DNA of 64,000 nucleotides, taken from assembly GCA_963741255.1 (NCBI GenBank), contig CAVUHM010000001.1, positions 10,675-74,674 on the forward strand, given 5' to 3'. A model generated the notes under the pieces. It saw nothing but the letters and a program-made list of their open reading frames with translations, was not told the origin of the DNA and made no database searches. The DNA is from an uncultured Gammaproteobacteria bacterium (GTDB lineage: Bacteria; Pseudomonadota; Gammaproteobacteria; Steroidobacterales; Rariloculaceae). How positions within the stretch are numbered: the stretch's first letter is position 1; the number at the start of each line of letters is the position of its first letter. A program made the translations under genes and the position numbers. Below are positions 1,353 to 54,678 of the stretch, piece after piece.

Positions 1353-1391
1353 TCTGCTCGCTGTCGACCGACCGTGATGCGCGCCGGCGCG

Positions 1392-11944: not shown

Positions 11945-11947
11945 CCC

Positions 11948-20026: not shown

Positions 20027-20067
20027 GGGTCTGCTCCGTCGCTCGCACGTGAATTAAATTCGAAGTC

Positions 20068-21581: not shown

Positions 21582-21600
21582 TTGCTCTCCTACTCGTGCA

Positions 21601-22822: not shown

Positions 22823-23626
22823 TCAGACGTCGAAGGCACCGACAACCTCGGTCATGAAGGAGACGGGGCTGATCGAGGTGAAGTGGGGGATGTCGTCGAC
22901 GACGCGCTGGTGATTCCTGCTCGCGGCTGCGGCGAAGGCCTGCGCATCGGCGACGTAGATATTCGCAGTGCAACTGTAAAGGGGAGGGTTCGTCCCCTCC
23001 GGGGAAGACAGGCCCTTGCGTATTTCTATCCGACTGATCGCCTCGTGACCGAACAGCTTGATCAGCGAGGTCACGTGATGGTCCCGATAGTATTCATGAT
23101 CGAAACGGTCGGCAGGACCCTGGGGATATAGCACGGTCAGGCATCGGTCACCCGTTCGTGTCGCGCTTGCAGGCTTACCCGTCTCGCCAAACACCACCTC
23201 GCTCTGAACCTGCTGCTCACCATTGGTGAAGTGAGCTCTGTCTTGCACCATGGCCTGGCCGTGGGCGGCACTGGCTTTGGCAAAAGCTCGAGGATCAGGA
23301 ATCCAGAAGTTGACGATGGCCGCATACGGGGAGGGCGGCTCGCCTTCAGCGACGAGGGGCTTGCGCATTTCCACACGCGTCAATGCGTCGCCATACAGAC
23401 TCTGCATGATCGCAAGGTGCTCGTCGCGGTAGTAGTCGTAGTCGAAATGGACTCCGGCGCCACCCGGGAAAATAGCCGTGTAGGCCCGCATGCCGATGCT
23501 GACCCCGCCGGCGGCGTCCGCGAGCACCTGCGGCATCACCGCGCCGGCCACGACTGCGCCGGAAGCGCGTAGGACCTGTCGGCGGGAGACGAACGGGGAA
23601 CTGTGTCTGTGGACGGTATTGACCAC
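22823..23626 (-). CDS. tandem EthD-domain protein with TAT signal
   Basis: Intact 267-aa ORF. N-terminus SRRQVLRASGAVVAGAV. Two repeats of the EthD pattern (FDYDYYRDEHL...PPSPYAAIVNFW... and FDHEYYRDHHV...PPLYSCTANIY...). Confidence 0.75.
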   Translation of the reverse strand: MVNTVHRHSSPFVSRRQVLRASGAVVAGAVMPQVLADAAGGVSIGMRAYTAIFPGGAGVHFDYDYYRDEHLAIMQSLYGDALTRVEMRKPLVAEGEPPSPYAAIVNFWIPDPRAFAKASAAHGQAMVQDRAHFTNGEQQVQSEVVFGETGKPASATRTGDRCLTVLYPQGPADRFDHEYYRDHHVTSLIKLFGHEAISRIEIRKGLSSPEGTNPPLYSCTANIYVADAQAFAAAASRNHQRVVDDIPHFTSISPVSFMTEVVGAFDV

Positions 23627-23634: not shown

Positions 23635-25881
23635 CTATCCGCGCGCGAGCGTCGCTTGGTCGATCGGCAGGCGCCGTACCCGCTTACCGCACGCGGCATA
23701 GATCGCGTTGCAGAGCGCAGGAATCACCGGCGGCAACGCCGGCTCGCCGAGCCCCGTCGGCGGATTATCCGTCCGGCGGAAATGCACTTCGACGGGCGGC
23801 GCCTGGTTGATGCGCAGCAGCGCGAAGTCGTGAAAGTTCGATTGCACCGTGCGGCCGTTCTCGATGTTGATCCGTGCGAGCGCCTGGCTGATGCCGTCGA
23901 GCGCGGCGCCCTGCACCTGATTCTCGGCGCCGGTCGGATTGATGATCTGGCTGCCGACGTCGGCGGCGATCCACACTTTGTCGACTTTGAGCTCGCCGTT
24001 CGCGCTGACCGTGGCCTGAACCACCTCCGCGAAATAGCCCATGTGGCTGTAGTAAAACGCCGTGCCCATCCCGGTCCCCGGCGGAAGCTGCCGCCGGGCA
24101 TCCCAGCCGGACTTCTCGCGCACGAGCTCGAGCACTCCGCGCATTCGGCCGGTATGGAAATCGGGCTGCGGCCCGTAACGATCGTCCGTCGAATCGAGTA
24201 TCCGCGGCTCACCGAGCAGATCGAGACGGAACTGCAGCGGATCGCGTCCAGCGGCATGGGCAAGCTCGTCGAGAAAACTCTGGAACGCGAACGCGAGCCC
24301 ATTGCTTTCCGGTGCCCGCAGCGGCCCGGTCGGCACGCCCGACGGAATGAACGACGCGGCGAACTCCATGTCAGCGACGAAGCGGGCAGGAAACTCGTCG
24401 GGACCTGCAAAAGCGGACGACGCCGGCCCTTCGCCGGTGCCGAGCGTCACGAAATGGTCGCGGAACGCGATGAGGTCACCGCGGCTGTCGAGGCCGGCCT
24501 TGAAATAGTGGAAGCCGGCGGGGCGGTAGAAGTCGTGACGAATATCGTCGGCGCGGTTCCACAGCAGCTTCACCGGCACGCCGGCGTGCTTTGAGATGGC
24601 CGCGGCCTCCACTGCGTAGTCGCTCGAGCCGCGCCGGCCGAAGCCGCCGCCGCACCGGGTTAGATGGATCGTGATGTCCTGTGGGTCGAGCCCGAGCGTA
24701 CGAGCAATCACGGTTCGATTGCTCTCGGGGTTCTGCGTCGGCGCCCAGATCTCGAGCTTGCCGCCGGCGTACGACGCCGTGCAGTTTTGCGGCTCGAGCG
24801 TCGCGTGCGCGAGAAACGGATAAGCGTAGTCGGCTTCGAGCACCTGCGTGGCACTCGCGAGTGCTGCGTCGACGTTGCCGTCCTTGACGATATAGGTAGC
24901 GGGCGCTTGCCCCTTAAGTCTCGCTGCCTCCGCGGCGAAGCGCGCGTCGCTATCGCGCGCGGCGTCGCCTTCGTCCCATTCGACTTCGAGCTGCTCCCGC
25001 GCCTGCTCGGCAAGCCACCAGCTGTCGGCGACGATCGCGACGCCGTCGACGAGCCGGTCGAGCGGCCCCGTGGAGCCGGCGACACTCTCGTCGCCTCGCA
25101 CGATGAAGGCGTCGCGGACTCCCGGCAGCGACTTCAACGCGGCGACATTCGCGCTGACGACCGTGCCGCCGAACACCGGGCACTTCGCATAGATCGCGTA
25201 CTTCATGCCCGGCACCGTCACGTCGATGCCGAACAGCGGTTTGCCTTCGACCACGAGCGGACTATCGACGCCCCGCACGGACGTGCCGATGATCGTGAAA
25301 TCTTTCGGGTCCTTGAGCCGGACTGCCGCGGGATCCGGCGGCGCGATCTTTGCGGCCGCCGCCGCGAGCTCGCCATACGTGAGCTTCCGCCCGCTCGACA
25401 CGTGCGTGACGGCGCCCGCGGCCGTTCGCAGCTCGCTCGCCGGCACGCCTAAAGCCTCGGCCGCCGCTCGCACCATCATTTCGCGCCCCGCAGCGCCGAC
25501 CCGGCGCAGCGGTTCCCAATTGAGTGGCGCCGCGGTGCTGCCGCCGGCGAACTGCGGCGCATATCTGGCGCCGTCGGCGATCGCCTGCTCGATCCGTACG
25601 TTTTTCCAGTCGACGTCGAGCTCTTCCGCGATCAGCATCGGCAGCATGGTCTTGACGCCCTGGCCGATCTCCGGGTTCTTGGCCGTGATCGTGACGATGC
25701 CGTCTGGCATCACCTTGATATAGGCGTTCAACACCTCGCCCGTCGCGGACACAGCTGCCCGCACGCTCGGCACGTGGAACTCGAGTAACAGACCGCCGCC
25801 GGCCAGCGCGCTCGCTTTGAGGAACGTGCGGCGGGAAAGCCCGGACTTGGTCGCGGCTTCGGGTACGACATTCATGGCCAT
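23635..25881 (-). CDS. molybdopterin-binding subunit of a xanthine-dehydrogenase-family oxidoreductase (IorB / membrane-bound aldehyde dehydrogenase type), TAT signal
   Basis: ORF 23635-26406 trimmed to MAMNVVPE at 25881, 5 nt after the 2Fe-2S gene stop. N-terminus SRRTFLKASALAGGGLLL. It has the long conserved body typical of IorB-like subunits. Confidence 0.9.
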   Translation of the reverse strand: MAMNVVPEAATKSGLSRRTFLKASALAGGGLLLEFHVPSVRAAVSATGEVLNAYIKVMPDGIVTITAKNPEIGQGVKTMLPMLIAEELDVDWKNVRIEQAIADGARYAPQFAGGSTAAPLNWEPLRRVGAAGREMMVRAAAEALGVPASELRTAAGAVTHVSSGRKLTYGELAAAAAKIAPPDPAAVRLKDPKDFTIIGTSVRGVDSPLVVEGKPLFGIDVTVPGMKYAIYAKCPVFGGTVVSANVAALKSLPGVRDAFIVRGDESVAGSTGPLDRLVDGVAIVADSWWLAEQAREQLEVEWDEGDAARDSDARFAAEAARLKGQAPATYIVKDGNVDAALASATQVLEADYAYPFLAHATLEPQNCTASYAGGKLEIWAPTQNPESNRTVIARTLGLDPQDITIHLTRCGGGFGRRGSSDYAVEAAAISKHAGVPVKLLWNRADDIRHDFYRPAGFHYFKAGLDSRGDLIAFRDHFVTLGTGEGPASSAFAGPDEFPARFVADMEFAASFIPSGVPTGPLRAPESNGLAFAFQSFLDELAHAAGRDPLQFRLDLLGEPRILDSTDDRYGPQPDFHTGRMRGVLELVREKSGWDARRQLPPGTGMGTAFYYSHMGYFAEVVQATVSANGELKVDKVWIAADVGSQIINPTGAENQVQGAALDGISQALARINIENGRTVQSNFHDFALLRINQAPPVEVHFRRTDNPPTGLGEPALPPVIPALCNAIYAACGKRVRRLPIDQATLARG

Positions 25882-25886
25882 CGCGG

Positions 25887-26366
25887 TCAGCCCTCGCTCG
25901 CGTCGGTCGGCGACAGCCCGGCCGCCCGCTTGATGGCGGCGCGGATCCGCGTGTAAGTGCCGCAACGGCAGATGTTGCCGGTCATCGCGGCGTCGATGTC
26001 CGCATCGGACGGCGTGGAATTGCGCGACAGCAGCGCGGTGGCGGACATGATCTGTCCCGCCTGGCAGTAGCCGCATTGGACGACGTCGACATCGAGCCAG
26101 GCCGCTTGGACCTTGCTGCCGATCGGCGTGGCACCGATCCCCTCGATCGTCGTGATCGCACCTTCCGCGACGGCGGACACCGGCGTCACACAAGCGCGGA
26201 TCGGCGCGCCATCGATGTGCACCGTGCAGGCGCCGCACAGACTCATGCCGCAACCGAGCTTGGTTCCCTTGAGCTCGAGCTCGTCGCGCAACACCCAGAG
26301 CAGCGGTGTCCGCGGGTCCACGTCCACACTCCGGCTCTCGCCGTTCACGTTCAAGGTCAATTTCAT
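25887..26366 (-). CDS. (2Fe-2S)-binding small subunit of the same oxidoreductase (IorA type)
   Basis: Intact 159-aa ORF with cysteine motifs [11 protein letters not shown] and CGYCQAG...CRCGTY, typical of the two [2Fe-2S] clusters. Confidence 0.9.
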
Positions 26367-26406
26367 GCCTGTATCCTAGCTGACGGGTCGTGCCGGCGCC
26401 GGTCAA

Positions 26407-27336
26407 CTAGAGCCCCTTGCTTTCGTATTCCCATGCCGGATCGCCGCAGAGGCCGCAATTCGGACCGACGAAAGCGCGGGAAGCATCGCTGCTGCCACGG
26501 AGCTGCCAGTCGAGCCAGTCGATGACGACTTCGGCCGCCGCTCCGCCGTTCGGTTCCCAGTAGGTGCCGCCATGGCCCTTGTCGATGTTCGCGACGGCGA
26601 TCGGCACGTGATTGATCTTCTGGTAGTCGTCCATGCCGTTTGCGTAGGCGATATCGGTCGGCCCGCCAAGCACGTACAGGGTCGGCGTGTGCAGATCCTT
26701 GATCCGGCCTTTCGTCTCGACCATCGCGCCCATGCGGGTCTCGCCGTCGACGAAGAGGCCGCTGTTCATGATGACGACGGTCTTCACGCGCGGGTCGGCC
26801 GCAATCGTCAACGCCTGAACGCCGCCACAGCTGAAGCCGGAGATCGCGATCTGCTCGGGATCGATGCGGCCGTAGTAGCGGCTGCCGGAGCGCTCGTTCT
26901 CTGCGAGCGCCCAGTCGATCGCGGCGCCGAGCTGGGCCGGACGCGTCGGCGCGTAGTTCTCGATGCTCGTGTCCGCGGGCCGCGGCGGCGCTTCAGTCTT
27001 GCCGGGACCGTTGTAGATGCCACCAGGCGCGATCGCGAGGTAGCCGTGCGAGGCGACATTCAGCAGATGGAGCCGCGCGCTCGCACCGTCGTTCGAGCAG
27101 CCGCCGTTGCCGAACACGTACAGCCCGAGCTTCGTGTCGCCGAGAGCCGCTAGATCGGCCGGCCGGTAGACGACCTGGTCCGGCAGGCCGGCATCGATTT
27201 CCTTGATCGGCGCAAACGGGCCAGTGCCCGGCGTATCGGGAATCGCGTCGAGATTCGCGGGTGGCTGCCCGGAGGCAACGCCTGTCGCGATCAGCAGAAC
27301 GGCTGCAAGGACGGTGGAGATTCTGCGCGTGCTCAT
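26407..27336 (-). CDS. secreted alpha/beta hydrolase (serine esterase, chlorophyllase/dienelactone-hydrolase-like)
   Basis: Intact 309-aa ORF with a signal peptide. GFSCGG nucleophile elbow and a C-terminal Cys pair NCGLCGD. It is clearly paralogous to the gene at 27426-28331. Confidence 0.8.
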   Translation of the reverse strand: MSTRRISTVLAAVLLIATGVASGQPPANLDAIPDTPGTGPFAPIKEIDAGLPDQVVYRPADLAALGDTKLGLYVFGNGGCSNDGASARLHLLNVASHGYLAIAPGGIYNGPGKTEAPPRPADTSIENYAPTRPAQLGAAIDWALAENERSGSRYYGRIDPEQIAISGFSCGGVQALTIAADPRVKTVVIMNSGLFVDGETRMGAMVETKGRIKDLHTPTLYVLGGPTDIAYANGMDDYQKINHVPIAVANIDKGHGGTYWEPNGGAAAEVVIDWLDWQLRGSSDASRAFVGPNCGLCGDPAWEYESKGL

Positions 27337-27425: not shown

Positions 27426-28331
27426 ATGCCGATCATGAATCTTCGAATCACAGTCGCAATGTCGTCGCTGCTGCTGGGGTCGCCATGGCTGGTCACGGCG
27501 CAGGCCGCGGACCCGGCAGGGTCCGGCGCGGAGCCCGCGATCGTGTATTCGGACGAATCGCTGCCGACGCATACGATCTATCGTCCCGAGCATCTGCAAG
27601 GCGACTATCCGGTCGTGCTCTGGGGAAACGGCTCTTGCGCCAACAGCAATTTCGGCTACCGGGAGTTTCTCGCGGAAGTCGCCTCGCACGGCTTCATCGT
27701 CCTGGCTCTCGGCCCCTATCGCGATTCTCCGCCGCCGCGGGAGCAACGCTCGGCGGATCCGGCCGAGTGGCCGCCGTTCGACACGCGCTACAGCCAGATG
27801 TTCGACGCGCTCGACTGGATCACCGCCGAGAACGGCCGGCCAGTCAGCCCGTTCCACGACAAGATTGCGATCGACCAAGTGGCCGTGATGGGCCACTCTT
27901 GCGGCGGGCTGCAGGCGGTCAAAGCGTCTCTCGACCGGCGCGTAACGACGGCGCTCGTGCTGAACAGCGGCATGATGGCCGACGACGACCAGTACATGGG
28001 CCGTCACGAGCTGCAACGCGCGATTCTCGACGAGATGCACGCGCCAATCGCGTACTTCATCGGCGGCGAAAGCGATATCGCGTACGCGAACGCCGAGGCC
28101 GATTGGCAAGAGCTACAGCGGCTCGATATCGCAGCGATCAACGCGAACATGGACGTCGGCCACGGCGCGACCTACCACCTGCCGAGCGGTGGACCGTTCG
28201 CGAGCGGGCCGCTGGCATGGCTCAAGTGGCAACTGAAGGGCGATGCGGAAGCGCGCGCGATGTTCGTCGGCAACGAGTGCGGCTTCTGCAATGACGGCGA
28301 CTGGACGTTGCGCCGCCACTTTCCGGAGTGA
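27426..28331 (+). CDS. secreted alpha/beta hydrolase, divergently transcribed paralogue of 26407-27336
   Basis: ORF 27261-28331 trimmed to MPIMNLRI. It has a signal peptide, a GHSCGG nucleophile elbow and a C-terminal ECGFCND. Confidence 0.8.
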   Translation: MPIMNLRITVAMSSLLLGSPWLVTAQAADPAGSGAEPAIVYSDESLPTHTIYRPEHLQGDYPVVLWGNGSCANSNFGYREFLAEVASHGFIVLALGPYRDSPPPREQRSADPAEWPPFDTRYSQMFDALDWITAENGRPVSPFHDKIAIDQVAVMGHSCGGLQAVKASLDRRVTTALVLNSGMMADDDQYMGRHELQRAILDEMHAPIAYFIGGESDIAYANAEADWQELQRLDIAAINANMDVGHGATYHLPSGGPFASGPLAWLKWQLKGDAEARAMFVGNECGFCNDGDWTLRRHFPE

Positions 28332-28370: not shown

Positions 28371-30455
28371 TTAGTCGCTCGGCAACGTGAACACGTAGAG
28401 CGCATGGCCGCGCTCGGGCACGCGGATCTCCGGAGTCAGCGTCGCCGGAACGCCGCGTGTGCTGCCCCCGCCGAGCCCGGTAGTGACGGCGATATATTGC
28501 TTGCCGTCGACCGCGAAGCTGATTGGAAATCCTTGCACCGATGTAGCGAGCCGAGTTTCCCAAATCACGTTACCGTCGCGCACGTCGACGGCCTTGAAGC
28601 TCCGATCGAGATCGCCGGCGAACGCCAAGCCGCCGGCTGTCGACAACACCGATGTCAGAAACGACGCACGCTGCTCGAGCGACCAGACTTGCTCGAGCGT
28701 ATCCACGTTGAAGGCCGCAAGCTTGCCGACGTTGCCGTTCGCGCCCGGTGCCACATAGAAACGTCGGTCGGCACCGCCGCTGCTGCCGCCGCCGGGGGTG
28801 AGCTCCACGGCACGCGCGCGCATCGAAGCGCAGCTCTGACTCAGTGGAATGATGAGTTGCCGTGTCGGCGCGTGGAAGCTCATCGCGGGCCAATTCTTGC
28901 CGCCGGCCGTGCTCGGGCACGCGTCGATCCACTCGCCGACTTTTTGGTCGATGATGTCTTGCCGGTAGCGCGGCCGCCCGGTCTCCCGATCGAAGCTGGC
29001 CCAAATGTTCTGCAGCACGGTCTCCGCGTGGCCGATGTAAGCGCCCGTGCGGCGGTCGTTCTTCCACAGGATGCCGTCCTTACCGACCGACAAGACCCAC
29101 TTGTCGGGGCCGGCGTCGACGAGCACGCGTTCGTAGACGACATCGAGGTCGAACGATTCGCCGGGCGCATGCGAGAAGTACCAAGCGAGCTTGCCCGTCG
29201 TCGCGTCGAGCGCGAGCGTCGAGCTCGTGTAGAGCGCGGCGTCGTTGGCGTTCATGCCGCGGCTCGCGGGCATCCACGGTTTTGCCTGCGTCGTGCCCCA
29301 GTACGTGAGGTTGAGCTCGGGATCGTAGCTGCCCGTGATCCACGACTCACCGCCCGCGCGATAGAGATCCGGCAGGCCGCTCCAACTGTCGCCGCCGGGC
29401 TCGTCCGTGAGCGCGATCGTACGAAACCGCCAGAGTTGCTTGCCGTCCTCAGGATCGTAAGCGCTGATGAAGCACTTGGTCTGCTCGAAGATGCTGCACG
29501 TGCCCATGCCTTGGATGATGAGTCCGTTCGCGATGACGGGGCCGCTATTCGTGGCATACACGTCGGGCATGACGACGTCCCACGCGAGCTCGCCGGTGCG
29601 CGCATCGAGCGCGATCAGACGCGCTTCTTGCGGACGGTTGGCCCAGGTGATCGTGCTCTGAAAAATCAGCTTGTTGCCGTAGAGCGAGATGCCGCGCGGC
29701 GCAACGTCGGCGCCGACGTGGTATTCCCAGATCAGGTTGCCCGTGCGCGCGTCGAGCGCTTGCACGATGCCGCCGGTATTGGCGAGGTAGATCGTGCCTT
29801 GGTAGGCGAGCGGGGCGGGTTGGTTGATGCCGCCATCGCGCATCGGCCAAATCCAGGCGAGCTGCAGGCGCTTGGCGTTGTCGGGCGTTATCTCGGCGAG
29901 CGGGCTGAAGCTCGTTGCGCTGTAGTCGTGTCGCAGCATCACCCAGTCGGCAGGATCCGGGCGCCGTAGCGTGTCGTCGGTGACCGGCACGAAGCGCGGC
30001 ACCGTGCCGGCCACCATGACACCCGTGGGCCCTTCCGCTTCGCGAGTAGTGAGGATGGCCGCGGTACCCGGAAGATCCTTGCCGAGGCGCTCCGTCGAGG
30101 CGGCCGTGATGGCCGCTTCGCTCGCCGGGCTGCCGTTGGCTTGCAGCAGATAGGCCACGATATTCGTGTAGGCCTCGACCTCGAGGCCGCCGGGATTGTC
30201 CGGCGGCATCGTCGAGCGCGTCTGCGCGATGAGCTCGTTCGTGCCGCGGTTGCCCCAGCTCGCGACGAACTCGGGTCCCCCGAGTGAGGCGTTCGGCAGT
30301 TGGCGCAGGTTCGCGCCGTGGCAGGTGGCGCAGCTCTGCTCGAACACGGCGCGGCCAGCGGCGGCTTGCTCGGTCGTGAACGCGAATACCGGTTCGCTGT
30401 GAAAGCCAAGCGCCGCGATGATCGCGAGCGAGGCGAAACGTTGCATCGAGCTCAT
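28371..30455 (-). CDS. quinohemoprotein: N-terminal cytochrome c domain fused to a PQQ-type 8-bladed beta-propeller dehydrogenase
   Basis: Intact ORF. The start is probably MSSMQRF at 30455, 7 nt after the lactonase stop. CATCHG heme motif at about residue 50. The rest carries PQQ-dehydrogenase repeats ([38 protein letters not shown]). Confidence 0.85.
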
Positions 30456-30462
30456 CGTGTTT

Positions 30463-31734
30463 TCAATACCGTACGTCCCCACACCACAGCTGAAACAGGC
30501 CGCCGGTCTGCACGTCCTGCTTGTATTGAAACGTCAATCGGCCGTCGGGCTCGATCGAGAACAGAACGATTCGCGGCGGCACGATCTCGACGCTGTTTCC
30601 TCTGCGCCGTTTTATCGGTCCTTCGGACTCGTGGCTCGTGGCCACGAGCGAGCGGCCGTCGGGATGCAGCGCGAACATCCGGACATCGAGGCTCTGCGGA
30701 TCCGCAGATTGGATCAGCCGCGGCTCGCCGGTCGCGGCATCCACGTCCAACACCGCGATTGAATTCTCCATGTTTTCGGCGATGACCTCTTCGCCCTGAA
30801 AAACTTCCTTGCCGCGACCGCGATTCGCGACATACAGCGTCCGGCCGTTGGTCGGATGCATGCGGATCGCCGATGCCGCTTGTCCTGGCTGCGACCGGGT
30901 ACCCGGCGCCAGAAGACTCGTGACGAACAACGGTTCTGCCGAAAGCCGATCGTCCTCGATGCCGAACGTTTGCAGCTGATTCTGCGACTCGATGACCACG
31001 TACACCCATTTGCCGGACGGATGAAATTCGACGTGACGGCAGCGAAAGTCACGGCCGCCGTTCGGCGCTACGGACTGCTTGTTCGTGAGCTGACCGTTGG
31101 CGTAGCCGAATATCTTGAGCGCACCGCGATCTTCTTCTCTTTGGCCCGAAATCGCCTGATTGCCGCGCGCAGGCAGGATGACGGCACGACCGGAGGGCAT
31201 TACGCGAATTTGGTGAGCATAGATTCCGGCATCGAGCGTCGCCGCTTGTCGCACTTCGCCTCCGACCGAGCCGTCGGCGTTGAGGCGATGAACGGCGATT
31301 CCGCTCGGTCGATTGAAAGCGGAGAGTAAGTGCTCGCCTCGAGGGTCGACCGTGATGTGGATCGGCCGATGGCGCAAGCGGACTGCAGCGCCGAGCGGCT
31401 CGAGCGCTCCCGACGAATCGACTTCGAAGGCGTTCAGATAATGGTTCTGCGGATTCGCCGCCGTATGCTCATCGCTGCTCGCGACGTAGAAATGCCGGCC
31501 CCATTGGCACGCTTCCTGAATTTCTTCGGCTACGACGATCGGTTCGCCGAGCTCGACGAGGGATTTACCGTCGTCGGCAATTCGGTAGCGCAACAGTCGG
31601 GGGCCGACGTTGGCATAGATATCCGCCCGCACTCTGTTCGGCTGTTGCGCCCCGAGGAGGCCGAGATGACCGAGCGCTGCCGCGCCGGCTGCGCCCGCCA
31701 AGCCTGCGTTGAATCTACGTCGATGCACGGCCAT
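30463..31734 (-). CDS. lactonase-family 7-bladed beta-propeller protein, TAT signal
   Basis: Intact 423-aa ORF. N-terminus [19 protein letters not shown]. Repeats such as [35 protein letters not shown] and [10 protein letters not shown] are typical of the 6-phosphogluconolactonase/lactonase family. Confidence 0.8.
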
Positions 31735-31739
31735 CCGCT

Positions 31740-32588
31740 CTAGGCGTGCTCACGGATGAATGCAAGCACGTTGGCGACGCACTCGTCCGGATTCGCGACT
31801 GCGATGTGATACGCGTCGCTCTGTAGCACGACGAGCCGCGAATCGGGTATCGCCACCTGATACTTGCGCACCTTTTCGACGGACTGCAGCGCGCTTCTGT
31901 CCGCCGTGATGATCAGCGAGGGTGCCGCGATGCGCTGCAGCACGCCGTCTCTTTCGAGGTCGAAGCTCGATAGCGCCGCATTCAGTCCCTGCGTGCCCGC
32001 TTGCGGCGCGGCCTTCTCCATCGCGTTCCAGTATTCGATCATCTCCGCGGATGCGGACGACCCGAGTCTGTCCTTCTGCGGAACGGGCGATGGATTCGAA
32101 ATCGAGATGACCGAAGCGGGTCCGCTGACGACGCAGAGAGACCGCGTCCTTAAGGGAAAGTCGGCAGCGAACTGCATCGCGATCGGGCCGCCGGTTTTCG
32201 CGCCGACAATGTGAGCGGACTCGATGCCTGCTTTGTCGAGCACGCTCGCTATATAGCGCGCAAGACCTGGAAACGACCATTCGAAGCCGGCCGGAACCGT
32301 CGAGAGTCCGCAACCCGGCAGGTCCGGGCGAAGCACGCGATACTCCTTCGCCAGTGTCGGTACCCACGCGAACCAGACGACGCCCGATTCGAGCGCACCG
32401 TGAATCAGAACGACGGCTTCCCGCTGGCGCCAAGGTTCACCGAACCAATCGTCGCGAAAAAACCGGTCGGTCGGTTCTCCGACGGGCTGTGTTTGGGCGT
32501 GCGCCGCCGTCGAAACGATACCGGTGCCGCCGATAGCCGCGCCGATCGTTGTCTTCAGGACGCTGCGGCGGGATACGGTGATCGCCAT
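31740..32588 (-). CDS. alpha/beta-hydrolase-fold protein with TAT signal and a non-canonical nucleophile elbow
   Basis: ORF 31740-32624, with the start probably at MAITVSRRSVLK (32588). It has VVLIHG and a C-terminal His (DAYHIAV). The elbow reads HIVGAKTGG where GxSxGG is expected. Confidence 0.75.
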   Translation of the reverse strand: MAITVSRRSVLKTTIGAAIGGTGIVSTAAHAQTQPVGEPTDRFFRDDWFGEPWRQREAVVLIHGALESGVVWFAWVPTLAKEYRVLRPDLPGCGLSTVPAGFEWSFPGLARYIASVLDKAGIESAHIVGAKTGGPIAMQFAADFPLRTRSLCVVSGPASVISISNPSPVPQKDRLGSSASAEMIEYWNAMEKAAPQAGTQGLNAALSSFDLERDGVLQRIAAPSLIITADRSALQSVEKVRKYQVAIPDSRLVVLQSDAYHIAVANPDECVANVLAFIREHA

Positions 32589-32598
32589 AGCGGATCCT

Positions 32599-34658
32599 CT
32601 AGTTGGGCTGCTTCTCTTCGGCACGCCGCGCGAGCTCGCGCACCCACGCGCTGACGTTCGCGATGGCGGCCTCGTCGAGGAAACTGCCGAACGCGGGCAT
32701 CAGGTTGCGGCCGGTCGACACGATACGTGGAATCTCGTCCGCTGCCAGCGCCGTCGTGAAAGCGGGGCCGCCGTGACCGCCGGTGCCGTCGGCGCCGTGG
32801 CAGAACACGCAGGAATTGACGTAAGCGGCCCGCCCGCTTTCGAGACTCACTTCAGCATTGCCGCTGCCCGGGGCTCGAGTAATCGACTGCTGCGTCGCTT
32901 CGGCGACTTCATCGAGCGTGCCGCTGAGCGAGAACAGCCAGACACTGTCGCCGCGAGCACCGCCCTGCACATGTCCACCCGAGTAGACCGCGACATACTG
33001 TTGCCCGCCGTGCTCGAAAACGCTCGCCGGTGCATTGACGCCCGCTCCTGTTTGAAACTCCCAACGTTTCGCGCCGGTCGCGGAGTCGAGTGCGGTGAGA
33101 CGACCATCGTTGCGGCCCACGAACACGAGGCCGCCGGCCGTCGTGACGGAACCGCTCAGACAGCGCTCCGGCCAATGCTGCTGCCACACGAGCTTGTTGG
33201 TTCGCAGATCGAGCGCGGCGAAAACGCCGAACAGCGGCATCGGGTTGGTGCCGAAGTTGCCGCCGATGTAGAACTCGCCGGGGGGCGGAAGCTCGTCGCT
33301 AATCTCCCAGGCGCGAAATGCGCTCGCGCCGTCGGCCGCGCAGACATAGATGTAGCCTGTTTCGATGTCGACCGAGCTCGGCGGCCAGTTCGCGCCGCCG
33401 CGGAGGCCCGGCTTCGCCAAGACGTAGTCCGTCCAATAGGGCGTGAAGATCCCGCCGCGATTGACGAGCTCGAACCCTTCGGGCGCGACTTCCATCGACA
33501 ACGGGACGAACGCATCGCCGATCGGAAACGGTTGCGTCGCCGCAGTGGCCTGGCGCGGCTCCTGCGGCACGGCGCGCTCCTCGATACCGATCAGCGGTTC
33601 GCCGGTCGTTCGGTCGAGTAGGTAGACCCAGCCCGTCTTGCCTGCCTGAGCCAAGCCCTTGCGCTCGACGCCGTCGATTTCGACGTCGAATAGCACGACG
33701 GGATTCGGTGAGTCGTAGTCCCACAGATCGTGATGGACTTGCTGAAAGTGCCAGCGGTATTTCCCGGTTCTCACATCGACCGCAACGATCGATGCGGAAA
33801 ACAGGTTGTCGCCGGGCCTCACGGCGCCGTTGAAATCGGGGCCGGCGTTGCCGGTGGAGAAGTAGACGAGTCCGAGCTCGGGGTCGAGGGCCGGTGTCTG
33901 CCACACCGTCGCGCCGCCGCTGCGCCAGACCTCGTTGTCTTGCGGCCAGGTGTCGTGGCCGAGCTCGCCCGGGCCCGGAATCGTGTAGAACGTCCATACC
34001 AGCGAACCGTCGTCGGCATCGTAGGCTTTGACGCGGCCGCGAACGCCGAACTCGGCACCGCGCAAAGCCCGTGATCACGAGGCCGTCGTAGTAGAGCGGC
34101 GCGGTCGTGATCGTGAAGCCGTCCTGCCATCGCTCGGCCTGGATGCTCCAGACGACCTCGCCTGTGCGCCTGGTCGAGGGCGACGAGCTTGCCGTCGAGC
34201 TGGCCTGCGTAGACTTTGCCGTCGCCGATCGCCACACCGCGATTGGTCCAGCCGCAGCAGACCGTCGAGATGCCGGGCTCGAGGTTCGCCTCGTAGGTCC
34301 ACAGGAAGTCGCCGCTGTCGACATCGATGGCGAAAACATCGTTGGCGGGCGTCGCGACGTACAGCACGCCGTCGAAAAAGATCGGTTGTGCTTCGGCCGA
34401 ATAGCGCGGGCCGAATCCCGAGCCGTTCAGTCGTGCTCGCCACACACCCTTCAGACGCTCGACCGTGTCGCGGTTGATTTCTTGCAGAGGCGAGTAGCGG
34501 CGGTTGTACCAGTCCCCGCCGTTGGTCGGCCAGTCGCTGCGTGGGGCAGTCAGCGACGAGCCCGCGAAGTTCGGTGCGACGACCTGCGCCTCGACGCCGA
34601 CGAGCGCCGGTGCCGCGAGCAGTGCCAGAACGATTGCAGTGGAGAACCTAATGTTCAT
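32599..34658 (-). pseudogene. quinohemoprotein alcohol-dehydrogenase-type PQQ enzyme with C-terminal cytochrome c domain; frame broken twice
   Basis: Signal peptide. DWPTNGGDWYNRRYSPL and the vicinal Cys pair in STVCCGWTNRG are typical of quinoprotein alcohol dehydrogenases. C-terminal CVFCHG heme motif. Joined from ORF 33819-34658, the frame of ORF 33299-34339 (about 34165-34065) and ORF 32599-34065. Confidence 0.8.
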
Positions 34659-34706
34659 CGGAGCTCACCTTGCGTGTAACCGAGCGTCGCCAGCTTAACC
34701 TGTCGC

Positions 34707-35855
34707 TCAGTCGGCCGAGAATGCGAAGACGGTTCGGCTCCGAAACGTCTGGTCGGGGAGCAGCGTCGTCCGCGGAAAGTGCGGCTGGTTCGGCGAGTCC
34801 GGGAAGTGGCCGGTCTCGAGCGCGACGCCGGCGCGCAGCGGGTATCTCACGCCGCCTTTCATGGCGCGCTGCGTGTCGATGAAGTTCGCGGTGTAGAGAA
34901 AGAGTCCCGGCTCGTTGGTCGAGACCGTGAGCGTCCTGCCCGACACCGGGTCGTGCAGCACGGCGGCTTCGGCGAGCTCGCCGGGAACGCTCGAGCGGCG
35001 CAGCACGAAGTTTTGGTTGTAGCCGCGGTTCTGGACCATTTGCGGGTCGTCGGCCGCGATGTCGCGGCCGATGGGCTTGGCCACGGTGAAGTCGAAGGGC
35101 GTGCCGCGCACAGACCTGATCTCGCCCGTCGGCGTGTTGTCGGGCAGCGCGAACGTGAAGAAGTCCGCAGCGATCGCGAGCGTGTGGGCGAGCACATCGC
35201 CGTTGCCGGCGCCAGCCAGGTTGAAGTAGCTGTGCTGCGTGAAGTTGACGACGGTGGGTTTCGTCGTCGTTGCGGTGTAGTCGACGATGAGGCGGTAGTC
35301 GTCGGTCCAATGATAGGTCACGGACACGGTCACGCGACCCGGAAAGCCTTGATCGCCGTCGGGGCTCACGAGCGTGAAGCGCAGGCCTTGGCCATCGGCG
35401 GTACGGATTCGCGACGTCGACCACAGCCGGTTGCCAAAGCCGTCCGGCCCGCCGTGCATGACGGACGGCGCCGGCTTGCCGTCGCGTGTCGTGCCGCTCG
35501 TGAGCTCGAACGTTTGGCCGTCGAGCGCGATCTTCGTGCTCGCGATTCGATTCGCGTAGCGGCCGATCGTCAGGCCGAACTGCGCAAAGTTGCTCGTGTT
35601 GTAGTCCGCCGCCGAGTCGTAGCCGAGGACCACGTCGGCCAGCGCACCGTCGCGATCGGGTGCCTCGACGGACAGGATAGCGGCGCCGAGGGGCATGAAG
35701 GCCGCTCTTGCGCCCGACGAGTTCGTAATCGTGTAGCGCGCGATCGCGCGGCCGTCGGCGAGCGCGCCCCAGGGCTCTTCGGCGATGCGTGCTCGATTTT
35801 GCGCGACAGCGCTGAGCGAGGCTGCGCTGACCGCGACGACGATCAGGTACTTCAT
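34707..35855 (-). CDS. aldose 1-epimerase (mutarotase) family protein, Sec signal
   Basis: Intact 382-aa ORF with signal peptide MKYLIVVAVSAASLSAVAQ. Blocks GRYANRI, HGGPDGFGNRLW and NLAGAG are typical of galactose mutarotase-like proteins. Confidence 0.85.
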   Translation of the reverse strand: MKYLIVVAVSAASLSAVAQNRARIAEEPWGALADGRAIARYTITNSSGARAAFMPLGAAILSVEAPDRDGALADVVLGYDSAADYNTSNFAQFGLTIGRYANRIASTKIALDGQTFELTSGTTRDGKPAPSVMHGGPDGFGNRLWSTSRIRTADGQGLRFTLVSPDGDQGFPGRVTVSVTYHWTDDYRLIVDYTATTTKPTVVNFTQHSYFNLAGAGNGDVLAHTLAIAADFFTFALPDNTPTGEIRSVRGTPFDFTVAKPIGRDIAADDPQMVQNRGYNQNFVLRRSSVPGELAEAAVLHDPVSGRTLTVSTNEPGLFLYTANFIDTQRAMKGGVRYPLRAGVALETGHFPDSPNQPHFPRTTLLPDQTFRSRTVFAFSAD

Positions 35856-35940: not shown

Positions 35941-37587
35941 ATGGCGCACGAACGCAGCAACGACGGTCCGACGCAGAAGCCCGCGCTGGATCGCCGGGCG
36001 GCAGTCAAAGGCGCGCTGGCCGTTGCCGGCGCGCTCGGGCTCGGTTCCCTGGCGCCGTCATCCGCACACGCCCAGTCGAGTGCCGCGCCTGCTGCGCGCG
36101 CCGGCGGCGCAACACTTGCGCTTACGCGCTTCTTGAACACCACTGCGTACGGCGATCTACCGCCGCTCGCTATCGAGCACGCCAAGATGATTCTCGCGAG
36201 CACGCTGTCGAGCGCTGCCGTGGGAGTCACGATGGACTCGGCGCGTATCCAACGCGAGCTGGCAGTGGATCAGGGTGGCAAGGCGGACAGCACCGTCTGG
36301 TTCGACGGAACCAAACTGCCGGCGGTGCTCGCCGCACGTGCCAACGCTGCTGCAAGCGACGCCGCCGCCTCCGACGACAGCGACATCCGCACCATTGCGC
36401 ACTTCGGCACGACGTTGACCGCGGCCGGTCTCGCGCTCGGCGAACGCACGCACGCGAGCGGTCGGGACTTGTTGCTCGCGATGGTGATCGGCTACGAAGC
36501 CGGCGGACGCATCGGCGACGCGCGCGCGGGCGGCCGCTCAGGGTTGCACGCGTCGCAGCTCGTGGCGTTCGCGAGCGCCGCCGTCTCCGCGAAGCTGCTC
36601 GAGCTCGGCGACGGGGAGATGGCGCATGCGCTTGGGCTAGTCGCCACCACGGTGGGCGGCCTTGGCGTCGGCACGAACAGCTGGGCGCGCGAATACATGG
36701 GCGCCAACGCGGCGTTCACGGGCGTGCAGGCGGCGCTGTCGGCGGCGAGCGGCTTCACGGTGAATGAGGACATGATCGAAGGCCCTAACGGGTTCATCGA
36801 CGTGTTCGGGGGTGGCGCCTCGAGCGTCGGCCGGCTGACGGCCGATCTCGGCACGTCCTGGAACATCGACGACTACCTCGCCATCAAGCTCTGGCCGGGC
36901 GCCCACCCGCTCTCCGGCATGGTCGAAGCCGCCGTCACCGCAGCGCGCGAAGGTAACGTCGAGGCGAGCGACGTGGCGCAGATTCTCGTCGCCGGCCCGT
37001 CGGTTCGCACGATGTTCGGCAGCCGCCGTCCGAAGGACCATGTCGAGGCCATTCACAGCCTGCCGTACTTCGTGGCCTCCGCGATTGCCGACAAGAACTT
37101 CACCTGGGTGCACGCGACGGCGGACAAGATCTTCGATCCGACCGTGCAGCGGCTGATGGCGCTCGTGGATCCGGATCCGTCGCCGCCGGCCGTGGAGACG
37201 CGCTGGCCCTGGGCCGGCACGGTTACCATCGTGACGACGTCGGGCGCGCGTATCACGCGGACCGTGGACGCGCCGCGCGGCTCGGCGCCGCGCGGCATCG
37301 AATGGACGGATGTGGAAGCGAAGTACCGCGAGCTGATGCCGCAGTCGCGGCTGCCGGCCCGACGCCTCGACGAGATTCTCGCGACGATCCGCGAGTTCGA
37401 GAACGTCAACGACGTGTCGCAGCTGACGCGCATGCTCGCACCGGCGGCGCTGAGCTCGCTTCTGTCGGTCGCCGCAATCTGCACTACGCGTCGTTACGGC
37501 AGTGCGTACGCGATCAGCTCGGCACCGGCGTTGACGCCCGATTGGCTCACGGCCACCACGATGTACTGCTTGCCGTTGTGCAGGTAG
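35941..37587 (+). CDS. MmgE/PrpD-family protein with TAT signal; 3' end uncertain
   Basis: 548-aa ORF. N-terminus LDRRAAVKGALAVAGALGLGSLAPSSAHA. The body has the length and pattern of the 2-methylcitrate-dehydratase family. The last 94 nt overlap the convergent PQQ gene, which suggests a lost or shifted stop. Confidence 0.75.
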   Translation: MAHERSNDGPTQKPALDRRAAVKGALAVAGALGLGSLAPSSAHAQSSAAPAARAGGATLALTRFLNTTAYGDLPPLAIEHAKMILASTLSSAAVGVTMDSARIQRELAVDQGGKADSTVWFDGTKLPAVLAARANAAASDAAASDDSDIRTIAHFGTTLTAAGLALGERTHASGRDLLLAMVIGYEAGGRIGDARAGGRSGLHASQLVAFASAAVSAKLLELGDGEMAHALGLVATTVGGLGVGTNSWAREYMGANAAFTGVQAALSAASGFTVNEDMIEGPNGFIDVFGGGASSVGRLTADLGTSWNIDDYLAIKLWPGAHPLSGMVEAAVTAAREGNVEASDVAQILVAGPSVRTMFGSRRPKDHVEAIHSLPYFVASAIADKNFTWVHATADKIFDPTVQRLMALVDPDPSPPAVETRWPWAGTVTIVTTSGARITRTVDAPRGSAPRGIEWTDVEAKYRELMPQSRLPARRLDEILATIREFENVNDVSQLTRMLAPAALSSLLSVAAICTTRRYGSAYAISSAPALTPDWLTATTMYCLPLCR

Positions 37588-39589
37588 GTCATCGGCGAGC
37601 CCGTTTGCTTGGCCGGCATCTTCACCTGTCCCGCCACGTCCTCGCCGGTCTCCTTGTCGTAGGCGCGTAGCAGCGCCACCGTTGCGCCGCTCGCATCGGT
37701 GTGGACGTCGCCTTCGCCCGCGATCACGAGCGTCTTGGTCGTCAGCGTGCCGATGAAGATCCGGCCGTAGGCGCCGAGTCGCGACACGTCGAGGCCCGCG
37801 AGTGCAGGGTTGTTGCGGATGTTGTCGGGCGTCGTGGAGTGGGCTTTCTGCCAGAGCATCTCGCCCGTATTCATGTCGTACGCCGTGATCCGGTCGTACG
37901 GCGGCTTGATCAGCGGAATGGTCCCTTGCAGGAAGGTGCTCGCGCGAGGCCCTCCCGGCCCCGGTTGCGCTCCCAATGCGCCGGGTCGCGGGCCGAGGCC
38001 ACCGGCTGGCGGCGCCGGCGGCGGGGCGGCCGCCACCGGAGCGGCGCCCGCGCGCGCAGCCGGACCCGGGTCGAACGGCCTGAGATTGGCGGGGATGTTC
38101 TGCAGCGTGAAGACCGCCGTATGCGAGTGAATGTAGAGGCGGTTCGTCTCGGGATCGAAGCTGCCGCCGGGCCAATTGGCGCCGCCGACATCGGCCGGCA
38201 GCATGAGCGTCCCGAGCGGGCCGCCCGGACGGTCGATCGCCGCCGGCGTGTACAGAGGCCCGATGTGGTACTGCGCCATGACTCTCTCGGCCTCGGCGCG
38301 CAGCGCCGGCGTGAGATCGTTCAGCACGTCCGCGGAAAAACCCTGGCGGTCGAACGGTTGCGGCCGCGTCGGAAACGGCTGCGTGGGGCTCGTCTTCTCG
38401 AACGGCGACTCCGATTGCGGCACGGGCCGTTCTTCGATGGGCCAGATCGGTTCGCCCGTTTCGCGGTTCAGCACGAACAGGAACGCCTGCTTGGTCGGCT
38501 GTGCCAGCGCCTTGATCGTGCGGCCGTCCTGCTGCATGTCGAAGAGAATCGGTGCGGCACGGCAGGTCGAAGTCCCAGAGGCCGTGATGCACCGTTTGGT
38601 AATGCCACCGGCGTTGGCCGGTGCGCACGTCGACCGCCACGAGCGATTCGCCGAACAGTCCGTCGCCGGGGCGGTTGAAGCCGTTGTAGTCGGAGGACGG
38701 CATCTCGACGGGCAGATACACGAGCCCGAGCTCCGGATCCGCGCTCATTTGCGACCAGACGCCGGTGTTGCCGTTGCGCTCCGCCGCGCCGTCTCCCCAC
38801 GTCTCGTAACCGAACTCGCCTCGAGCCGGGACGGTATGGAAGATCCAGAGGCGCTTGCCGGTCCGCACGTCGAAACCGCGCACGTTGCCGCGTACGTCCC
38901 AGGTCGAGCTCGGGGCTGCCGGCCGGGCGATGCGCGGCGCCCACCACAATGACGTTCCCGACCACGAGCGGCGTGGCGTTGAGCCCGATGTTGCCGCCGT
39001 CCGGGTCGACCTCCTGGTCGAAGTTTTCCTTCAGGTCCACGATGCCGTCGTCGCCGAACGAGTCGACGGGAATGCCCGTCTTGGCGTCGAGCGCGATCAT
39101 GCGATAGCCGGGCGTCACGTAGATGATGCGTTCGTCCGTGCCGTCCGGGCTCGACCACCACGCCACGCCGCGACCGGCTCCTTGGCGAGCGCCCGCACTG
39201 CCGCGCGCGCCTTCGTCCTCGCGGTACAGCCATTTCATTTCGCCCGTTGCGGGATCGAGCGCGACCACCGCGCGGCGCGTGCCCGCCGTCGTGTACAGGG
39301 TGTCGTTCACGTACAGCGGGGTTGCGGAATACAGCGTGTCGGGGCGCGGGCCGAGAAAATCCGTGCGCAGGCGCCACGCGATCCGCAGATCCTTGAAGTT
39401 GTCCTTGTCGATTTGGTCCAGCGACGAGTAGCGCTGGCTCGCAAGGTTGCCGCCGTAGGTCGGCCACTGCTCGGCGCGACCACTCGCTGCGGCCGGCGGT
39501 TGCGCTGTGCCGAGGGACGCGCCAAGCACGCCCCCGAGCACGAGGGCGCAGGCTGCGATCCTAAATTTACGCAAGTAGGCTCTCCCCAC
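37494..39589 (-). pseudogene. PQQ-dependent dehydrogenase (glucose/quinate-dehydrogenase-like propeller, no heme domain); frame broken twice
   Basis: Signal peptide. EQWPTYGGNLASQRYSSLDQI, ALDPATGEMKWLY, AVDVRTGQRRWHYQTVHHGLWDFD and AYDMNTGEMLWQ. Joined from ORF 38468-39589, the frame of ORF 36637-38949 (about 38945-38560) and ORF 37494-38537. Confidence 0.75.
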
Positions 39590-39601: not shown

Positions 39602-40039
39602 TTACGGGTTCGGCGGGATCTGGAACGTCATCTTAGTAAGGGCGTCCTGCTCGGCAGGCAGCGGTTCGCTCCCGAGCGGCAAGCCGTTGTACCAGAGAAC
39701 GTAGGTCAGGATCTCGACCCGCTGTTCCTCGAGCAGGCTCGCGGGCTTCTCCGGCGGCATCGTCGCGATGCGCGCGACCAACGCCGCGAGCGGTGCACCG
39801 TTCCACGTGCTGGCGAATTGCGGGCCGACGAGTGGCGGAGACTTGTCCGCTCCCGCCATGGTCTCGCCGTGGCATTGCAGGCAGTGCTGGTAGTAGAGGT
39901 CCCGGCCGCGCAGCGCCTGCTCCTCGGTGTAAGCGCCGGCCAAGATCGATGGTGTGGCCGCCGGCTGTCCCACGGCCCGGACGAGACCGGTACCGGCGGA
40001 GCACGCGCTGACCAGTAGTGCGATTGAGTGGATTCTCAC
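39602..40039 (-). CDS. monoheme c-type cytochrome, exported
   Basis: ORF 39602-40126 trimmed to a GTG (VRIHSIALLVSACSA signal/lipobox). CLQCHG heme motif. Its stop is 12 nt upstream of the start of the PQQ gene. Confidence 0.75.
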   Translation of the reverse strand: MRIHSIALLVSACSAGTGLVRAVGQPAATPSILAGAYTEEQALRGRDLYYQHCLQCHGETMAGADKSPPLVGPQFASTWNGAPLAALVARIATMPPEKPASLLEEQRVEILTYVLWYNGLPLGSEPLPAEQDALTKMTFQIPPNP

Positions 40040-42070: not shown

Positions 42071-42151
42071 GCATGGCGCCTCCTCTTGCGGTATCGGCGC
42101 AGCATACCCGCCATCGCACGCTATGCAACCGTTTGCACAACCCGAACGGCG

Positions 42152-43108: not shown

Positions 43109-43148
43109 GGCGGGCTATCGGTGCCCAACGGCCTAACGGTAGACTTCG

Positions 43149-44477: not shown

Positions 44478-44478
44478 A

Positions 44479-45964: not shown

Positions 45965-46038
45965 CGCCGAGCGGCGCAGCGCGCGAGCCGCGTCCATCGG
46001 AGAGAGTCTTGGGTAAGAGGAAGGCGCGCAACAGCAAG

Positions 46039-54600: not shown

Positions 54601-54678
54601 GGTCTGTCGCGGGCTCGTCATGATCGATGCGGGGGAGTCACGGTGCGAACACAACCTTTCGGACAAATGGGAGAGACG

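Follow-up and report, generated by a model that had tools for sequence, protein, structure and literature searches.

Gene families and export signals of a five-gene operon

Open reading frame (ORF) listing and translation of a stretch of 64,000 nucleotides (nt) of contig CAVUHM010000001.1, from an uncultured Gammaproteobacteria bacterium (assembly GCA_963741255.1; the whole stretch is hereafter the window), placed five co-directional genes on the minus strand at positions 28371-35855, separated by spacers of exactly 48, 10, 5, and 7 nt. An earlier reading of the same letters (the original prediction) had described this operon with the same gene order and spacers and had proposed for it a periplasmic route from an aldose via a lactone to an aldonate. 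Its domain families were likewise borne out for every one of the five genes by Pfam and NCBIfam scans. The well-founded best reading of the cluster is an exported oxidation module of pyrroloquinoline quinone (PQQ) and cytochrome c proteins coupled to a lactonase, for which family resemblance and gene context make a sugar the plausible substrate. From operon gene 1 onward, the genes are:

34707-35855, minus strand, mutarotase (aldose 1-epimerase), operon gene 1; Aldose_epim domain; Sec-type signal
32599-34658, minus strand, PQQ dehydrogenase with C-terminal cytochrome c (PQQ-cytC); PQQ and Cytochrome_CBB3 domains; CVFCH; Sec-type signal
31740-32588, minus strand, alpha/beta-fold protein (abK); Abhydrolase_1 domain; twin-arginine translocation (Tat) signal
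30463-31734, minus strand, lactonase-family 7-bladed beta-propeller; Lactonase domain (PF10282); Tat signal
28371-30455, minus strand, cytochrome c-PQQ fusion; N-terminal Cytochrome_CBB3 (CATCH) and PQQ domains; Sec-type signal; D-L-D motif

N-termini were read straight off the sequence and carried the signal types proposed before. Sec-type signals without the RR pair preceded the mutarotase (MKYLIVVAVSAASLSAVA/Q, the slash marking the cleavage site) and the two heme proteins (MNIRFSTAIVLALLAAPALVGVEA/Q and a 25-residue signal/F). Twin-arginine motifs were present in the alpha/beta protein (SRRSVLK) and the lactonase (HRRRFN) and, outside the cluster, in an enolase-superfamily protein at 18779-20026 (DRRSVLTG) and an MmgE/PrpD-family protein at 35941 (DRRAAVKG). 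In these four window proteins a hydrophobic stretch and then a cleavage site of the A-x-A type came after the motif, which was also conserved among the orthologues of each. Cytochromes of the c type cross the membrane unfolded and have their heme attached in the periplasm; Sec signals on the heme c proteins and Tat signals on the heme-free folded proteins thus make an internally consistent set, as established biology predicts, and export of the cluster proteins is predicted.

Soil libraries labelled metatranscriptome contained contigs that together cover all five genes and bridge three of the four gene junctions (mutarotase/PQQ-cytC, alpha-beta/lactonase, and lactonase/fusion), consistent with co-transcription of the operon. 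A promoter and terminator scan gave nothing above chance, a megablast of the operon against plasmids gave no match, and an exact-sequence look-up of the window lactonase returned no record.

The second gene had been called a quinohemoprotein PQQ dehydrogenase, and the family and the C-terminal cytochrome c of that call stand: PF01011 and PF13442 domains, the CVFCH heme motif, and a vicinal Cys-Cys pair make up the type II quinohemoprotein layout, and the closest PDB entries were the type II quinohemoprotein alcohol dehydrogenases (ADHs) 1KB0, 1KV9, and 1YIQ, together with PedH. The call had overlooked two 1-nt insertions, by which PQQ-cytC is not a single intact frame in the window; the frame was whole in all relatives. 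The PQQ domain of the fusion was closest to 4CVB (1.6e-93; Pseudogluconobacter PQQ-ADH), 9M2C, 7WMD, and 4MH1 (2e-74; Ketogulonicigenium sorbose dehydrogenase), with the type II ADHs much farther away (approximately 1e-51). These matches place the fusion near the carbohydrate-oxidising PQQ branch and make sugars or polyols its putative substrates. By family, the two PQQ enzymes of the operon are methanol/ethanol (ADH) enzymes and not classical aldose-C1 dehydrogenases.

The metal motif of PQQ-cytC departs from the Ca-type D-x-T/S, reading D-Y-D as in PedH (6ZCW) and XoxF (6DAM) rather than D-Y-T (1KB0) or D-F-T (1KV9). In both PQQ-cytC and the fusion, which reads D-L-D, an Asp lies two residues after the catalytic Asp, a motif that in Ca enzymes is D-x-T (1KB0, 1KV9, and 1YIQ) or D-S-E (4CVB and 7WMD). 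All three PQQ dehydrogenases of the window shared D-x-D (DYD in PQQ-cytC, DLD in the fusion, and DFD in PQQ3, a neighbour of the operon), and it was kept in their orthologues. A 2025 survey treated the D-x-D motif as an indicator of lanthanide binding and delimited, close to 4CVB, a clade of predicted lanthanide "sorbose dehydrogenases" whose members come mainly from Acidobacteria and Gammaproteobacteria (PMC11996626). Lanthanide-type metal use by the three window enzymes is predicted from this motif; no genes for pqq biosynthesis or lanthanide uptake were found among the window ORFs scanned.

The mutarotase was a bona fide, regular member of the GalM family, matching PF01263 (4.7e-72; 243 bits against a cutoff of 27), NF008277 (268.9 bits against a cutoff of 240), and the PDB entries 4RNL (4.5e-68) and human GALM (3e-58). 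HGG, QHSYFNL, and LETGHFPDSPN, all of them conserved, aligned with 4RNL as whole stretches. The lactonase matched PF10282 (5e-30; 105 bits against a cutoff of 21.7) and, weakly in sequence, PpgL (6IGB; 18% identity). The top Foldseek matches of its AlphaFold2 (AF2) model (pLDDT 86) were 1RI6 (Escherichia coli YbhE), 6NAU (Klebsiella 6-phosphogluconolactonase), and 6IGB, at template modelling (TM) scores of 0.78-0.87, normalised to the target. Homologues at 55% identity kept the RRxFN motif and adjoined genes for a PQQ_2 propeller and a GSDH-type sugar dehydrogenase, and in locus L038 the company of another close homologue was a tannase and a different PQQ gene, with abK missing.

Conserved core, lysine-type alpha/beta protein, and split reading frames

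The order PQQ-cytC, alpha/beta protein, lactonase recurred in at least eight independent loci of metagenomes and metagenome-assembled genomes (MAGs) at 76-94% protein identity, which is more than chance. It was kept in L001-L003, L004 (same contig as L009), L007, L008, L010, L036, and L037, and a partial contig (L030) held only PQQ-cytC and the first half of abK. The fusion followed directly after this trio in most loci, with L008 and L037 as exceptions. The mutarotase stood at the start of the cluster only in the window, L001, and L002, and is a lineage-specific, accessory addition; the invariant unit comprises three to four genes with the mutarotase outside it. Metagenomes of soil, rhizosphere, bog, and sediment and MAGs with a Gammaproteobacteria label were the sources of all close relatives, with no cultured organism among them. 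Recurrent neighbours of the cluster included a Tat-signal MmgE/PrpD protein, PQQ3 with a 145-aa cytochrome c, a Tat-signal EthD protein, DUF6152 proteins, a molybdopterin oxidoreductase, and secreted esterases.

The alpha/beta-fold protein had been described as lacking the Ser nucleophile, and its nucleophile elbow does carry Lys for Ser (G-A-K-T-G-G aligned to G-H-S-M-G-G), so that abK cannot be a serine hydrolase. The fold is canonical, by PF00561 and by an AF2 model (pLDDT 74) that matched many alpha/beta hydrolases at TM 0.6-0.7; the fold search with this model returned generic hydrolase neighbours only. Across 20 loci from Gammaproteobacteria, Alphaproteobacteria, and Acidobacteria (36-94% identity), the Lys was invariant; the triad His (in SDAYHIA) and a DWFGEPW motif were kept with it, as the Asp was in most cases, and the SRR Tat motif was conserved throughout except in the three most distant loci. 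When 1.84 billion cluster representatives were searched with a profile, 90 of the 120 top matches covering the site had Lys there, and the nearest Ser-bearing relatives read G-E-S-x-G-G. Many of the Lys-bearing representatives had no signal peptide. Literature searches turned up no relevant account of a nucleophile elbow of the Lys type, nor of such an alpha/beta family. A carbonyl-directed reaction, of the Schiff-base or general-base type, on the oxidation product is proposed for abK.

The wider family with G-A-K-x-G-G (P0361-P0510) was large and uncharacterised; most of its members seem cytoplasmic and start with MP...DD.FTDPW, and a subgroup with predicted Tat export includes the operon abK. 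Distant abK members in Alphaproteobacteria and Acidobacteria had no PQQ genes near and often lay by a gene for a secreted uncharacterised protein of approximately 280 aa. That second family (motif GDSVGHYEGDTLVVDT...PH...LHVVER; no Pfam match) recurred near abK homologues in L011-L021, from Alphaproteobacteria and Acidobacteria MAGs, and is apparently present in tandem in the window at 20013-21713 (minus strand).

PQQ-cytC spans three frames in the window by two single-base insertions at approximately 34167 and 34060: frame 0 runs to ...LVALDQ, frame +1 covers RTGEVVW...ITGFA, and frame +2 continues from GAEFGVRG on. Against the syntenic contig L001 (nucleotide identity of 90% in the PQQ-cytC gene and 87% across an 11.7-kb collinear region), blastn gave exactly these two 1-nt insertions in the gene. 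PQQ3 (37494-39589) was likewise split, by 1-nt insertions at 38558 and 38908. In the relatives' contigs that cover the 34167 and 34060 sites, from four independent DNA runs as well as RNA-labelled runs, the extra base was always absent from both. Removal of the bases turned PQQ-cytC and PQQ3 into clean ORFs of orthologous length and without internal stops, the former of 2058 nt and 685 codons against 681-693 aa for the intact protein of relatives. The ratio of nonsynonymous to synonymous substitution rates (dN/dS) against L001 was 0.117 for the corrected PQQ-cytC and 0.087 for the corrected PQQ3, compared to 0.095-0.165 for intact neighbours, so that all cluster genes, the corrected ones included, are under purifying selection (0.09-0.17).

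Further 1-nt indels lay in unrelated genes at 37446, 37465, 37475, 40090, 40264, 44425, 44676, 44914, approximately 46480, and 47482. In all, the window had approximately one single-base indel per kilobase relative to related populations, a pattern typical of an unpolished long-read assembly. Genes split in this way encoded an MBL-fold protein, a cyclase, MFS and GH13 proteins (44425/44676/44914), a LacI regulator (approximately 46480), a PSD/DUF1592 pair, and the C-terminus of the PrpD-like protein. More single-base indels were seen at about 6400 and about 16675. Loci of related long-read MAGs (L007, L008, L010, L031, and L032) also had split genes, at different positions, and those MAGs derive from Nanopore sequencing (PMC12313526).

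Taken with the absence of the bases in relatives and the purifying selection, these many other indels and the split genes of the Nanopore MAGs make consensus errors of long-read assembly the most likely origin of the insertions at 34167 and 34060, with the operon intact in the organism. The window sequence itself was in no public run indexed, the best runs sharing 0.37-0.47 of its sampled words, and the insertions were therefore compared with relatives only. Programmed frameshifting was ruled out: both shifts are +1, absent in every relative, and uncompensated (net +2), and no slippery motif was seen by eye. A home-made codon-usage segmentation was noisy, splitting the single ORFs 20013-21713 and 40711-42114, and was used only where independent evidence agreed. 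More generally, frameshifts in long-read MAG contigs can mask intact genes.

Neighbouring genes and later sugar-acid steps

The surroundings of the operon bear on whether steps after the aldonate could also be exported, as the original prediction had raised, and on the choice between sugars and other alcohols as substrates. The features concerned are:

18779-20026, minus strand, enolase-superfamily protein of the D-mannonate dehydratase (ManD) subgroup; Tat signal; PDB and NCBIfam matches
35941-37587, plus strand, MmgE/PrpD-family protein, divergent from the operon; Tat signal; true end probably at approximately 37440, the natural stop having been lost by indels
37494-39589, minus strand, PQQ3, soluble homologue of the catalytic domain of membrane glucose/quinate dehydrogenase; signal peptide
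39602-40039, minus strand, small c-type cytochrome of 145 aa, preceding PQQ3
26407-27336, minus strand, hyd309, secreted PETase/dienelactone-hydrolase-like alpha/beta hydrolase
1401-3014 (minus), 3295-5085 (plus), 54658-56235 (plus), 56304-57527 (minus), 26407-27336 (minus), and 27485-28331 (plus), secreted ester hydrolases
22823-23626, minus strand, EthD protein
21601-22029, minus strand, DUF6152 protein
13822-14256, plus strand, DUF6152 protein
23635-26406, minus strand, molybdopterin oxidoreductase

The product of 18779-20026, previously described as enolase-superfamily and acid-sugar-dehydratase-like, fell into the ManD subgroup by its best PDB matches (4FI4, 3THU, 3VCN, and 2QJJ; 1e-44 to 1e-47), and it matched the NCBIfam ManD and GalD models below their equivalog cutoffs. 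A metagenome scan returned 80 relatives from soil and rhizosphere (L039-L118; 75-94% identity), 74 of which kept the twin-arginine motif ([DN]RR[SG][VF]L...) and a PSADA/L cleavage region under a strict pattern, while most of the remaining six read NRRRTL. In six loci the ManD-type gene was directly followed by a glucose dehydrogenase (GDH)-type soluble PQQ dehydrogenase and a hyd309-like secreted hydrolase; hyd309 itself recurs in relatives beside the enolase-superfamily gene and GDH-type PQQ genes. Nothing relevant was found in the literature on Tat-exported enolase-superfamily proteins.

The label "PrpD-like dehydratase" for the gene at 35941 proved too specific. The protein has the Pfam domains and no NCBIfam match. 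Among solved structures it came nearest to cis-aconitate decarboxylases and IDS epimerase, with E-values of only 1e-17 to 1e-18, distances at which a dehydratase activity is not a justified call. The gene neighbours the cluster also in L001, L007, L008, L010, and L036. PQQ3 matched TIGR03074 (membrane glucose/quinate/shikimate dehydrogenase) over positions 149-783 only, with 369 bits against a cutoff of 832; the membrane anchor is replaced by a signal peptide, and the separate gene that precedes it encodes a 145-aa cytochrome c that is likely its electron acceptor. PQQ3 is the most GDH-like enzyme of the region, yet it lies outside the operon.

One related locus (L085, positions 1-12052) encodes two aldolases (HpcH/HpaI, its N-terminus signal-like, and RraA-like, its signal Sec-like) and two enolase-superfamily proteins with twin-arginine motifs (GalD-like, reading SRRSILK, and ManD-type). 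Its other genes are for a secreted mutarotase, GSDH, PQQ3, a hyd309-like hydrolase, a DLH-type esterase, an MBL-fold protein, and an SBF transporter, and the whole looks like an almost complete, putatively exported route of non-phosphorylative sugar oxidation. In L037 the conserved trio is followed just downstream by genes for a GalD-like dehydratase and for FAH-family and RraA-like proteins. The window itself held no GSDH, HpcH, RraA, or SBF homologues. The suggestion of later periplasmic steps thus gained good comparative support from the Tat motif in the 74 ManD-type relatives, the adjacency to GDH-type PQQ genes, and L085, and export of sugar-acid steps in this lineage stays a prediction from signal motifs.

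The window was rich in secreted ester hydrolases, namely two tannase/feruloyl esterases, a carboxylesterase, a GDSL enzyme, and two PETase/chlorophyllase-like proteins, a density that suggests an island for plant-derived esters. A Tat-signal EthD protein, two DUF6152 proteins, and a molybdopterin oxidoreductase with a 2Fe-2S subunit recurred beside the cluster in L004, L008, L036, and L057, and the window DUF6152 protein at 21601-22029 bears a twin-arginine motif. A seemingly cytoplasmic sugar locus at 42152-47137 comprised a ROK gene (minus strand), an MFS transporter, a GH13 gene, and a LacI regulator, the last three hit by single-base indels; the GH13 product looks sucrose-phosphorylase-like from its N-terminal sequence. 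Other observations were two pairs of PSD/DUF1592-type and DUF1552 (HXXSHH) genes at 10370-13276 and 47495-51634 (plus strand), families better known from Planctomycetes, and an ankyrin-repeat/PSCyt1 protein at 7958-9875.

Proposed function, alternatives, and known systems

The operon is interpreted, with a probability of about 0.5, as an exported sugar oxidation and lactone-opening module of PQQ and cytochrome c enzymes that is linked to the respiratory chain of an uncultured soil gammaproteobacterium. The two PQQ dehydrogenases, each fused to a c-type cytochrome of its own, would act in the periplasm on a sugar or a polyol resembling one, oxidising its hydroxyl or hemiacetal groups and passing the electrons via heme c to the respiratory chain. 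Oxidation of a hemiacetal (lactol) would give a lactone, which the Tat-exported propeller lactonase would open to the acid, and the conserved Tat-exported abK, with its non-serine chemistry, would most likely act on a carbonyl or lactone intermediate. In this lineage a secreted mutarotase would have been added as gene 1, an argument for a free aldose as substrate in this case. The surrounding island, with the GDH-type soluble PQQ dehydrogenase and its cytochrome c, the ManD-type dehydratase, the MmgE/PrpD protein, and secreted esterases, probably takes the route further, to a 2-keto-3-deoxy-aldonate outside the cytoplasm. The class of substrate and the order of reactions are both proposed from family and context. 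A more far-reaching version, in which the whole non-phosphorylative pathway from aldose through lactone, aldonate, and 2-keto-3-deoxy-aldonate to pyruvate and an aldehyde would run in the periplasm with lanthanide-type PQQ enzymes, exported ManD/GalD/RraA/HpcH/MmgE-PrpD proteins, and a Lys-type alpha/beta catalyst, is regarded as doubtful.

The main rival has non-sugar alcohols or diols as the substrates of the quinohemoproteins, for example alcohols set free from plant esters by the secreted esterases of the island, or aliphatic diols: these would be oxidised via a hydroxy-aldehyde and a lactol to a lactone that the lactonase opens, and the mutarotase would be an unrelated recent insertion. 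Such a non-sugar module is possible, if on the unlikely side, and it fits the resemblance of PQQ-cytC to type II quinohemoprotein ADHs and PedH, the lack of a mutarotase in most syntenic loci, the tannase, carboxylesterase, GDSL, and PETase-like genes of the window and its relatives, and the company of the L038 lactonase homologue. It agrees less well with the carbohydrate-active closest solved relatives of the fusion, with a mutarotase joined to the same tight operon by a 48-nt spacer and a bridging RNA-labelled contig, and with sugar-acid enzymes that recur nearby (ManD-type and GalD-type dehydratases, FAH, RraA-like aldolase, and GSDH). A role of abK and the "lactonase" as accessory factors in the maturation, docking, or stabilisation of a two-enzyme alcohol oxidation system is very improbable. 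The missing Ser nucleophile, the lack of a characterised homologue of abK among those found, and the great distance of the lactonase from characterised enzymes would suit it, but Lys, His, and mostly Asp are kept at the triad positions down to 36% identity (range 36-94%), which points to catalysis, there are abK homologues in Alphaproteobacteria and Acidobacteria with no PQQ genes around them, and lactonase homologues have other partners.

Decay of the operon, with PQQ-cytC and PQQ3 as genuine pseudogenes of the strain and the five-gene route non-functional, is improbable. Each of the two genes does hold two uncompensated +1 insertions in the window, and these four are the only uncompensated single-base indels in coding sequence over the 11.7-kb L001 alignment. 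The reading frames freed of the insertions contain no stops, their dN/dS values resemble those of intact neighbours, all relatives lack the inserted bases, many more 1-nt indels fall in unrelated window genes, and related Nanopore MAG loci are similarly split elsewhere (PMC12313526).

Several observations weigh against the proposed sugar oxidation. The sequence as given has one core gene broken, export is read from motifs alone, and the RNA-labelled libraries can contain DNA. No substrate can be read from the sequence, as had been stated at the outset, and, in an island so rich in esterase genes, the true substrates could be the alcohol moieties of plant esters and not free sugars. The mutarotase is absent from most related loci (L004, L007, L008, L010, L036, and L037), the lactonase shares no more than 15-19% identity with any characterised lactonase and its lactone hydrolysis is a prediction, and characterised ADH-family members mostly oxidise alcohols and not the anomeric carbon. 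The place of abK in a route from aldose to lactone to aldonate is unexplained. The route first proposed is partly supported: the exported oxidation and lactonase module holds up, while the mutarotase is outside the conserved unit and neither operon PQQ enzyme is of the classical aldose-C1 type.

To our knowledge, the end points of periplasmic PQQ sugar oxidation are gluconate or ketogluconates, with the cytoplasm as the site of the later steps. If dehydratase and aldolase steps were exported, carbon would be processed to small acids before uptake, with electrons passing straight to the respiratory chain, and abundant uncultured soil bacteria would have a different economy of sugar use. The cluster further offers leads in lanthanide-type quinohemoproteins, a widespread ManD-type family with Tat signals, and a large uncharacterised Lys-type alpha/beta family.

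Among known systems, the periplasmic glucose oxidation of Pseudomonas and Acinetobacter (Gcd/sGDH and PpgL) likewise places a PQQ enzyme and then a beta-propeller lactonase outside the cytoplasm, and its PpgL (6IGB) ranked with the best matches of the cluster lactonase in both sequence and fold. Acinetobacter also has a secreted mutarotase alongside its PQQ dehydrogenase. The cluster dehydrogenases differ in being cytochrome c fusions of the methanol/ethanol family, unlike the quinone-linked membrane Gcd or the six-bladed sGDH, and the cluster differs in being one tight operon with a Lys-type alpha/beta protein and Tat-signal neighbours of dehydratase families. The type II ADHs (Comamonas qhEDH, 1KB0; Pseudomonas putida ADH IIB, 1KV9, and ADH IIG, 1YIQ) share with PQQ-cytC the eight-bladed PQQ propeller, the C-terminal cytochrome c, the CxxCH motif, and the Cys-Cys pair. 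Their Ca-type D-x-T contrasts with a D-Y-D like that of the lanthanide enzymes PedH and XoxF, and we know of no alpha/beta protein, lactonase, or second quinohemoprotein as operon partners of 1KB0, 1KV9, or 1YIQ. The nearest solved enzymes to the PQQ domain of the fusion, of sorbose/sorbosone type (4CVB and 4MH1), have no fused N-terminal cytochrome c; the predicted lanthanide sorbose dehydrogenase clade (PMC11996626) has D-x-D in common with the fusion.

The non-phosphorylative Weimberg, Dahms, and De Ley-Doudoroff pathways, with their ManD-subgroup aldonate dehydratases, draw on the same families, which follow one another in the same logic (mutarotase, dehydrogenase, lactonase, enolase-superfamily aldonate dehydratase, and 2-keto-3-deoxy-acid aldolase or dehydratase). 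These pathways are cytoplasmic and NAD(P)-linked, whereas PQQ/cytochrome c dehydrogenases and dehydratase- or aldolase-family proteins with Tat or Sec signals are found here. In polyvinyl-alcohol (PVA) degradation, the gene for a PVA dehydrogenase with an N-terminal heme c stands beside that for an alpha/beta-fold oxidised-PVA hydrolase; this system was set aside, as abK lacks the Ser and no similarity to oxidised-PVA hydrolase was seen among its PDB matches, and a lactonase and a mutarotase have no place in it. The cluster is a variant of known periplasmic PQQ oxidation systems that is new in form.

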